Program-made: the position numbers | Source: Escherichia phage 933W | Reading direction: 5' to 3' (one strand) | Sequence record: Y10775.2 | Length of the DNA: 12,168 nucleotides | Shown: positions 9,001-12,000 of the stretch, in pieces | Layout: every line of letters begins with the position of its first letter | Position numbering within the stretch: the stretch's first letter is position 1

Positions 9001-12000
9001 GCCTTTTTCGTATTTCGGGCTGTAGTCTTCCTTCTGCCATTGTCCTGTAACTTCCGGACTTCAGCCCGCTCCTTATTTTACTCACAATATTATCCCGGCC
9101 GGGAGGATTCATGGCATTTAAACACTATGATGTTGTCAGGGCGGCGTCGCCGTCAGACCTTGCGAAACGAATAACTCAAAAACTGAAGGAAGGGTGGCAG
9201 CCTTATGGTAGTGCGCTGATTTCGACAGCTGGTTATGGTGCGGAGTTCATCCAGCCAGTTGTGAGTGAGGGGAGCATCTCATCACCAGAGGAGCCAGGCA
9301 ACCGTCCGACGACCTCAGCGCCTTCTGTTGCGCCAGAATATTACTATGTGATCGCGCTTGCTGGTCAGTCCAATGGTATGTCATAACGGTGAGGGACTGC
9401 CATTGCCGGATACATTCGACAGCCCTGATCCACGTATTAAACAGTTAGCGCGTCGCAGTACGGTGACACCGGGCGGTGCAGTATGCAAATATAACGACAT
9501 CATTCCGGGGGACCATTGTCTGCATGATGTGCAGGACATGAGCCGTCTTAACCATCCGAAAGCGGACCTGTCAAAGGGGGAGTACGGAACCGTGGGGGAG
9601 GGGGTGCATATCGCCAAAAAACTGCTGCCGTTTATACCGGCGAATGCGGGCATTCTGCTGGTTCCGTCCTGTCGTGGTGGTTCAGCGTTCACCACCGGAG
9701 CCGATGGGACATACAGTGACGCGAGTGGTGCCTCGGAGAATTCAACCCGCTGGGGTGTGGACAAGCCGCTGTATAAGGACCTTATCGGTCGAACAAAAGC
9801 AGCACTGAAGAAGAATCCGAAAAATGTGCTGTTTGCCGTGGTGTGGATGCAGGGGGAATTTGATTTTGGCGGTACGCCGGTAAATCACGCCGCACAGTTT
9901 GGTGCGCTGGTTGATAAATTCCGTGCAGACCTGGCGGATATGGCAGGCCAGTGCGTCGGTGGCTCTGCTGGGGGGCGATATGCGGGGACACGACGTATTT
10001 CTGGAAGCAGAAGAACGAATCCACGTACCAGACGGTGTATGGGCAGCTATAAAAACAAAACGGAAAAGAATATCCATTTCGTACCGTTCATGACGGATGA
10101 GAACGGGGTGAATGTGCCGACGAACAAACCGGAAGAAGACCCGGACATTCCGGGTATCGGATATTACGGTTCGAAATGGCGTGACAGCTCAGCCACCTGG
10201 ACGTCACAGGACAGGGCGAGCCATTTCAGTTCATGGGCTCGCCGCGGGATTATGGCAACGGCGATTTTGCGCCATGCGGGGAAGAGTGGCTTTCCGACCG
10301 TCGCTAAACGCGGGGGCATCATCGACAGTATCAGAGGTGCGCCCGTCATCGCCTTCCGGTGCAGAAGCCACAGGCGTCACAACACTGCTCTCTTACCTTG
10401 CCAGCGAGTCAGAGGGAAGCCTGAAAGTACAGGGATGGTCAGCCAGTGGCGGCAGGGCAGAAGTGGTCAGCGATGCGGAGGGAACCGGAGGTAAGGCAGT
10501 GAAGCTGACCAAGGAAGCCGGTAAAAGCAGCTGGGTGCTGGAGTACGCCGCGGGCAACGGTGCGGCTCTGTTACAGAAAGGGGGGCAGATGGCGCTGCCG
10601 CTTTAAGGTAGGGAGCCCTGCCTGCGAACCAGTATGTTATGGCGTTTTACTGGCCGGTATCTTCACTGCCACAGGGCGTTGCCCTGACCGGAGACGGGGG
10701 GAATAACCTGCTGGCAGCGTTCTACATCCAGACAGATGCAAAAGACCTGAATGTGATGTACCACAATGCGAAAGTGGCGACAAACAACCTGAAACTGGGA
10801 ACCTTTGGCGCATTTGATAACGAATGGCATACGCTGGCTTTCCGCTTTGCCGGGAATAACAGCCGGCCCGTGACGCCGGTTATTGATGGTAACAGCCTGC
10901 AGGTGACGCCGGTTATTGATGGTCAGGATGGCACACCGTTCACGCTGACGCAGTCACCGGTCAGTGCCTTTGCGGCGGATAAACTGCATGTGACAGACAT
11001 TACCAGAGGTGCGACTTACCCGGTACTGATAGACAGCATTGCGGTGGAAGTGAACAGCACAGACACTGCGGCATGATAAAAAAACCGCCAGCGACAGGAA
11101 TGGACGCTGGCGGTGGTGATACCTATGGAGAAAAAATAAAGGAACGATACTTTCGTACTCTGGTTTTTAATGAAAACAGTTCTTATTGTCAACAATAACG
11201 GAAAGAAATTATGACATTTCTGAACCAGTTAATGCTGTACTTCTGTACGGTGGTCTGTGTGCTGTATCTCCTTTCGGGTGGGTACAGGGCCATGCGTGAC
11301 TTCTGGCGCAGACAGATTGACAAAAGGGCCGCTGAGAAAATCAGCGCCAGTCAGTCAGCCGGAAGCAAACCCGAAGAGCCGCTCATTTAGCGGCAACTTT
11401 CTTAATCACACCTTTCGACGAGAAAATCCCATGTCAGAAATTACATCCCTGGTCACTGCAGAGGCAGTGAAGGACGTCCTGCGCTCTGAAGAAGTCCGGA
11501 GCGCACTGAAACAGAAACTTCGCCATAACCTGGAAGCGCGTCTTGATGCAGAAGTGGATGCCATTCTGGATGAACTGCTTGGTGTACAGGCAGAGCCACC
11601 GACTGAAGCGGGAGATACCACCGCAGAGAGCGGTGAAGTTCAGCCTGAATCACCGGTCGCCGATGCGACTGAACCTCAACCCGAATCGGTCATGATGCTG
11701 TAACGGGGAGTCAGGGCCATCAGTAAACAGCTGCTGGCCTTTTTCATGTTGTGAGCTTCCGGATTGCGGGAGACGGGGTATGTACCAGATGGAAAAAATC
11801 ACAACAGGTGTGTCATACACCACGTCAGCGGTGGGAACGGGCTACTGGTTCCTGCAGTTGCTGGACAGGGTTTCCCCGTCTCAGTGGGCGGCAATAGGCG
11901 TGCTGGGGAGTCTGCTGTTTGGGCTGCTGACATATCTGACGAACCTGTATTTCAAGATTAAAGAAGACCGGCGTAAGGCGGCACGGGGAGAGTAAGCTGA

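Follow-up and report, generated by a model that had tools for sequence, protein, structure and literature searches.

Is the esterase gene nanS-p of the Shiga toxin (Stx) 2 phage 933W really broken, or have the breaks been written into one of its database records? The question is raised by record Y10775.2 of Escherichia phage 933W, a stretch of 12,168 nucleotides (nt) that is analysed here as a whole and referred to as the window, in which the coding information for the esterase at 9111-11076 is scattered over three reading frames. A first-pass annotation, made from the sequence alone, had leaned towards sequencing artefact by single-base homopolymer indels and had held that artefact and pseudogenisation could not be told apart. 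Comparative data do distinguish the two: they uphold the leaning towards artefact, while the proposed mechanism applies to a minority of the lesions only. We conclude that the frame breaks are errors of this record and not a property of the phage, with a probability of roughly 0.96.

The window is the O-to-R region of 933W. It aligns end to end with the complete genome (NC_000924/AF125520, 14077-26218) at 99.2% identity, with 37 difference events in total, and is colinear with it from O to R: the end of O is followed by P, ren, the nin region, roi, Q, three tRNA genes, stx2A, stx2B, the SASA-family esterase gene, a hypothetical gene and the holin gene S, and the window ends within R. The esterase gene therefore has the position that defines nanS-p in Stx phages, in the late region 3' of stxAB and 5' of the holin and lysozyme genes. 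An exact-sequence look-up matched three open reading frames (ORFs) of the window to proteins filed under Escherichia phage 933W, namely CAB39296.1 ("Orf14"), which is the roi product including a missense change private to the window, CAB39302.1, which is the ORF at 10112-10603, and CAB39303.1, which is the ORF at 10639-11076. The window and the complete genome AF125520 are thus independent database entries for one and the same phage.

In the 933W genome nanS-p is a single coding sequence (CDS) of 1,938 nt and 645 codons (NP_049502.1, 645 amino acids, aa) with the domain order DUF1737 - SASA - DUF6645. The gene as written in the window measures 1,966 nt, and the three-domain architecture, carried by one chain in 933W, is present but split over three ORF fragments, with Pfam placing DUF1737 in the ORF at 9111-9386, SASA in that at 9358-10494 and DUF6645 in that at 10639-11076. 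The split over three frames described in the first-pass annotation is confirmed by these Pfam searches and by three-frame translation, which follows the 933W protein through the window along the path 0 -> 1 -> 0 -> 1 -> 2 -> 0 -> 1. The window as written therefore lacks the single ORF of about 640 codons, its first stop falling at codon 92, whereas NC_000924 and a second sequence of the same phage, CP111102.1, both have it; we attribute this failure to record errors. The gene, the segments discussed below and its two landmarks are the following.

9111-11076, plus strand: nanS-p (equivalent of 933W L0105 / ST933Wp42 / z1466), from global alignment to NC_000924, Pfam on the fragments and three-frame translation
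9111-9384, plus strand: frame-0 segment, residues 1-91, DUF1737 and the first part of the esterase domain with the AGQSNGMS motif (Pfam, three-frame translation)
9386-9971, plus strand: frame-1 segment, residues ~92-287, SASA esterase core
10302-10590, plus strand: frame-2 segment, residues ~397-494, linker and start of the C-terminal domain, within the CAB39302.1 ORF
10639-11076, plus strand: final frame-1 ORF, DUF6645, lectin-like C-terminal domain, identical to CAB39303.1
8355-8624: stx2B, upstream of nanS-p
11780-11995: S, the holin gene, downstream of nanS-p

Lesions were defined by global alignment of the window to 933W (NC_000924). The damage to nanS-p amounts to six frame-changing lesions, a displaced 12-nt block, an in-frame imperfect duplication of 33 nt and 11 substitutions, and its main elements are listed here.

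9385, plus strand: lesion 1, an extra A (TCATACGG to TCATAACGG, +1) that creates a TAA directly after the AGQSNGMS motif
9972-9976, plus strand: lesion 2, GGCGGTGTTCCCTGGAT to GGGGGGCGAT, a C-to-G change with 8 nt (TGTTCCCT) lost and 1 nt gained (net -7)
10041-10043, plus strand: lesion 3, GG to GGG (+1)
10252-10301, plus strand: lesion 4, the 12-nt block TTTCCGACCGTC, absent after 10252 and back at 10290-10301, displaced 37 nt downstream
10278-10281, plus strand: second part of lesion 4, GGG to GGGG (+1)
10591-10592, plus strand: lesion 5, AGATTCGC to AGATGGCGC, T to GG (+1)
10608-10621, plus strand: lesion 6, GGTTTCGGG to GGTAGGG, with TTC to A at 10608-10610 (-2) and a TAG in the repaired frame
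10617 and 10621, plus strand: G-to-C changes beside lesion 6
10857-10889, plus strand: in-frame 33-nt imperfect tandem duplicate of 10890-10922

Four of the five break points placed by the first-pass annotation agree with this alignment. The extra A making a TAA at about 9383-9385 and the GGG at 10041-10043 reappear as lesions 1 and 3, and the region at 10600-10612 in which no frame could be followed was essentially right, since it corresponds to the T-to-GG and TTC-to-A changes of lesions 5 and 6. The break in the G run at 9969-9975 was correctly located, but it is a net loss of 7 nt at 9972-9976 and not a single-base homopolymer indel. The fourth break point, a G5 run at 10321-10325, was misplaced: there is no G run there, the nearest G5 (10312-10316) is identical in 933W, and the true shift lies about 40 nt upstream. 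Block displacement, 33-nt duplication, the 11 substitutions and the damage outside the gene had been missed. The statement that the breaks sit mostly at homopolymer runs holds for the two of the six frame-changing lesions in which a G run has simply grown by one base, with one more doubling a single A, and fails for the others; the G runs at 9970-9975, 9596-9600 and 9602-9606 are themselves products of C-to-G miscalls.

Conceptual repair, with inserted bases taken out and deleted bases put back, gave 1,938 nt and a product 98.8% identical to NP_049502.1. The substitutions left after repair look like unselected noise. The frame-1 segment holds six private exchanges between G and C (9509, 9580, 9598, 9604, 9668 and 9708), five of them missense, and the repaired product carries A133G, Q157E, Q163E, L165V and C186S at residues that are invariant or nearly so among 57 natural full-length alleles; the substitution at 10610 turns codon 502 into TAG even when the indels have been removed. 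The two copies of the 33-nt duplicate differ: the first has CCGGCCCG and the second, at the corresponding place, CCTGCAGG, a PstI site. This site, CTGCAG at 10897-10902, lies within 10890-10922, and the first copy has CGGCCC in its place, as would be seen if overlapping reads had been merged wrongly at the edge of a subclone; the simplest account of the duplicate is that one stretch was entered a second time where reads or subclones joined.

The comparison that carries our conclusion is with other sequences of the same phage. CP111102.1 (Escherichia phage EDL933-Stx, circular, 61,663 bp) is 100% identical to NC_000924 over the whole homologous stretch of 12,142 bases, so that the window is the outlier at all 37 difference events. 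The first-pass annotation had proposed that high-quality reads restoring a single open frame would reveal an artefact, and NC_000924 together with CP111102.1 in effect supplies that restoration. We also considered that the errors might lie in the 933W reference instead of the window, and rejected this, as CP111102.1 is identical to the reference and hundreds of genomes have the intact allele.

We then extended the comparison to natural relatives. Among 5,426 complete E. coli genomes, none matched 9100-11100 at 99% identity or more; the best identity, 97.5%, was to the intact 933W-type allele, which is carried by hundreds of genomes, or to the form interrupted by an insertion sequence (IS) in Sakai. 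To search for the lesions themselves, 41-mers were strung together, each with one of 15 indel or rearrangement junctions at its centre, and junctions in a lar-like gene and in ninB were among them; in this design any 28-nt megablast seed must span a lesion. No 28-nt seed match was obtained in the 5,426 genomes or in 50,697 phage records, and positive controls of the same design were found (a 32-nt control in 671 records, a segment with a natural 28-mer in 289), indicating that the method works. The same test with 41-mers centred on 13 substitutions gave no match either, the A-to-G change at 1223 being the only one that occurs naturally. Exact k-mer searches for the lesions found 0 matches in IMG/VR, and for the extra A at 9385 also 0 in JGI metagenomes and GTDB representative genomes, as against 43 matches for the wild-type version of the 9385 k-mer.

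Natural alleles of nanS-p pointed the same way. None of 80 alleles from IMG/VR, with 66-100% amino-acid identity, has any of the window's indels or any of its exchanges between G and C at 9509-9972, and most of the sites changed in this interval are invariant (79 of 79 natural alleles agree). Of 70 full-length natural loci, 69 have a frame that stays open for 620 codons or more, a count that we preferred to a MAFFT-based tally of indels other than multiples of 3, since the variable linker aligns noisily. The reproducibility in independent sequences or relatives that would be expected of pseudogene lesions was therefore not observed. A divergent natural allele or a recombinant was likewise rejected, since the lesions fall on sites that are invariant in 79/79 alleles and none of them is shared.

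The substitution spectrum is not biological. Nine of the 11 nanS-p substitutions exchange G and C and 0 of 11 are transitions, whereas natural alleles compared with 933W show 16% G/C exchanges and 43% transitions (Fisher p = 3e-6 for the difference from the window); the transition-rich, natural-like spectrum of a pseudogene was thus absent. All nine G/C exchanges in nanS-p are, on one strand or the other, a C after G that has become G (G[C] to G[G]), as are 12 of the 14 in the whole window against 29% expected (p ~1.5e-5), which is the systematic, context-dependent miscall pattern that an artefact should leave. We know of no mutational process that gives this combination of GC-to-GG changes, block displacements and an imperfect 33-nt duplicate, and the combination would fit misreading of gels or traces with manual merging of subclone reads. 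Errors of the homopolymer type, as made by 454/pyrosequencing, Ion Torrent or nanopore platforms, were considered and rejected: most lesions are not changes in homopolymer length, and such errors would not account for the G/C miscalls, the displaced blocks or the duplicated overlap.

The distribution of the events is as uneven as their spectrum. nanS-p makes up 16% of the window and holds 21 of the 37 events (p = 2e-8), and only 3 events occur between 3422 and 9384, a stretch of 6 kb. Neutral decay cannot put about 20 changes into 1.5 kb and leave the adjoining 6 kb nearly unchanged; sequencing of uneven quality can do exactly that. Several genes are affected and the errors cluster in stretches that were probably poorly checked, as expected of a record artefact. 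Eleven CDSs encode proteins that are the same as in 933W: P, ren, a hypothetical gene, the methyltransferase, P63C, ninG, ninH, stx2A, stx2B, the hypothetical gene downstream of nanS-p, and S. Outside nanS-p the damage is located as follows.

2209, plus strand: loss of a G that breaks the frame of the lar-like restriction-alleviation gene (1921-2279)
2359-2382, plus strand: 24-nt block in ninB (2303-2748), displaced 25 nt upstream of its 933W position
2558, plus strand: loss of an A that breaks the frame of ninB
3338-3421, plus strand: intergenic private cluster upstream of the P63C gene, with a GGGA insertion, AGAA lost and several substitutions

The variants of the lar-like gene and of ninB, searched as 41-mers, were absent from every E. 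coli genome and phage record examined. The GGGA insertion of the intergenic cluster makes the only BamHI site of the window (GGATCC, 3337-3342) and is followed by the 4-nt loss and the substitutions at 3388-3421, and this cluster at 3337-3421 may be an artefact of a subclone or polylinker junction.

Three further differences concern single codons or bases. The antiterminator gene Q has a private missense change at 6540-6542 (GCGTGAATT to GCGGGGATT), and the exact Q variant, read from its GTG start, had no match in the protein collection; roi has a private G-to-C missense at 4932, and this variant is the one deposited as CAB39296.1 "Orf14". The DNA variants of both genes had no match in any E. 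coli genome searched. The A-to-G change at 1223 in ren is the only difference that is also found in nature, G being the common allele in more than 1,000 E. coli genomes and A the base in both other 933W sequences; the G of the window may have arisen by chance error or may mark a true difference between stocks. Upstream of stx2, the phage's three tRNA genes (ileZ, argN and argO, ~7042-7293) are the same as in 933W, with zero differences in the stretch.

The best explanation of the window is that it is an older, independently determined sequence of 933W. Its first bases are exactly an EcoRI site (GAATTC, 1-6), as expected for a cloned restriction fragment, and two more EcoRI sites (4903-4908 and 9734-9739) flank a 4.8-kb fragment with Q, the tRNA genes and stx2AB; the positions of these sites suggest that the record was assembled from cloned EcoRI fragments. 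In the real phage nanS-p is one 645-codon ORF, DUF1737 - SASA esterase - DUF6645, between stx2B and the lysis genes, and its product is a late-expressed 9-O-acetyl-sialic-acid esterase. Frame changes, displaced block, 33-nt duplicate and G/C changes arose while the record was read and assembled and are not mutations of the phage. A C after G would have been read repeatedly as G on whichever strand was sequenced, and the merging of reads would have moved some short stretches or duplicated them. Where no gene was then known (nanS-p, ninB and the lar-like gene), the sequence may have escaped the correction that comes from checking ORFs, by which stx2AB would have been corrected.

Some points weigh against this account. 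The error mechanism is itself inferred from the pattern of the changes; the clone that was sequenced could in principle carry some real mutations acquired during cloning, and no single lesion is individually excludable as such; and CP111102.1 could have been polished against the reference. Its different total length (61,663, as compared with 61,670) would argue for an independent assembly.

The alternative that survives best, to which we give a small chance, is a mixed case, in which most changes are errors and one or a few of them (for example the extra A at 9385, the extra G at 10041 or 1223 A to G) are genuine mutations of the clone or laboratory stock. Single-base slippage at short runs does occur during propagation, and since G at 1223 is common among natural ren alleles, one difference or more is biologically plausible. 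The extra A and the extra G, in turn, are absent from all collections searched, and they stand amid obviously artefactual changes with nothing that sets them apart.

Real pseudogenisation, by which nanS-p, ninB and the lar-like gene would truly have decayed through multiple frameshifts in the sequenced stock or lysogen, appears very improbable. EDL933 contains nanS-p in multiple copies (7-10 alleles, PMC8065619), so that one loss would be tolerable, and a stop and missense changes at invariant residues persist after repair of the indels, as they would in unselected sequence. Against this, the gene is intact in two further sequences of this phage, which do not differ from each other, some 20 events in 1.5 kb beside 6 kb with 3 events do not resemble neutral decay, nanS-p shows zero transitions and the GC-to-GG context bias, the block displacements have no known mutational mechanism, and no lesion is common to any other genome searched. 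The 91-aa N-terminal product that ends at the new TAA does have verbatim matches in E. coli assemblies by exact-sequence look-up. In 7 of the 7 places shown, with 10 contigs read, the gene is cut by a contig end at ...ATGTC(A) without the TAA, and the cluster of this product holds similar "partial" proteins of many lengths; natural occurrence of a TAA-terminated 91-aa product was therefore rejected, the matches being assembly breaks in a multi-copy gene and not natural stops.

The contig ends are an observation in their own right. Many E. coli draft assemblies break at the same base within nanS-p (...AATGGTATGTC), which yields identical 91-aa "partial" DUF1737 proteins, and such partial proteins are expected because short-read assemblies break inside a multi-copy gene; the shared break most likely reflects the downstream esterase core, which is repeated in several prophages per genome.

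Returning to the record, we consider it equally improbable that a laboratory stock or clone of 933W really had a nanS-p disrupted several times over, with ninB and the lar-like gene broken as well; if it did, it would mean that these accessory genes can be lost from an Stx2 phage while it is propagated. The idea that programmed frameshifting or phase variation at G tracts controls esterase expression, prompted by the two lesions in short G runs (10041-10043 and 10278-10281), can practically be dismissed, given that all six shifts (+1, -7, +1, +1, +1, -2) would need to be bypassed, that the tracts are just 3-4 nt long and their length variants occur in no other genome searched, and that 69 of 70 full-length natural loci keep one open frame.

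Record error remains our reading, and comparison with known systems places the gene accordingly. The nearest relative is 933W nanS-p itself (NP_049502.1), of the same phage and at the same locus between stx2B and the holin gene, with DNA identical except for the events private to the record; all the lesions of the window are absent from NC_000924 and CP111102.1. NanS (YjhS), encoded by the E. coli chromosome and known as a 9-O-acetyl N-acetylneuraminic acid esterase (PDB 3PT5), matches residues 72-393 of the 933W protein (E = 2e-117) and, in contrast to the phage enzymes, has neither the N-terminal DUF1737 nor the C-terminal DUF6645. The structure solved for the C-terminal domain of phi24B vb_24B_21 (NanS-p; PDB 6YP6) matches residues 423-640 (E = 6e-141). 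This domain is lectin-like and presumed to be a carbohydrate-binding module (PMC10462455), and in the window it contains a spurious insertion of 11 residues (RPVTPVIDGNS) and has its start broken by lesions 5 and 6.

A real inactivation of the same gene looks different. In nanS-p disrupted by IS1203v/IS629 (for example in Sakai Sp5, Stx2 phage II and the PA phages) the inactivation is reproducible across many genomes, with a 1.3-kb IS insertion common to many independent genomes, in contrast to the scattered private indels and G/C changes of the window; these insertions also turned up in our own genome comparisons. In a survey of 59 Stx2a phages the 645-aa sequence of 933W was present in 11, and the natural interruption of nanS-p in Stx2a phages was an insertion of the IS3 family and not frameshifts (PMC10462455).

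These results describe nothing novel: the broken nanS-p of the window is a problem of record quality and not of biology, and it matters as data hygiene only. The partial 933W record feeds fragment "proteins" into protein databases, among them the spurious CAB39302.1 and CAB39303.1 (UniRef Q9ZWW7 and Q9ZWW6). The former, with 164 aa, is the sole member of its own cluster among ~15 billion proteins, and this singleton is a frame-shifted chimera. To conclude from the sequence of the window that the NanS-p esterase, NinB or the Lar-like protein had been lost would be misleading. z1466 of 933W/EDL933 has been reported to be an active Neu5,9Ac2 esterase (reviewed in PMC8065619), it is a late gene strongly induced together with stx2 (PMC8065619), and NanS-p enzymes enable lysogens to use O-acetylated sialic acids of mucin for growth (PMC8065619). 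For nanS-p in 933W the biology is unchanged: the phage has an intact, late-expressed esterase that is active according to the literature.

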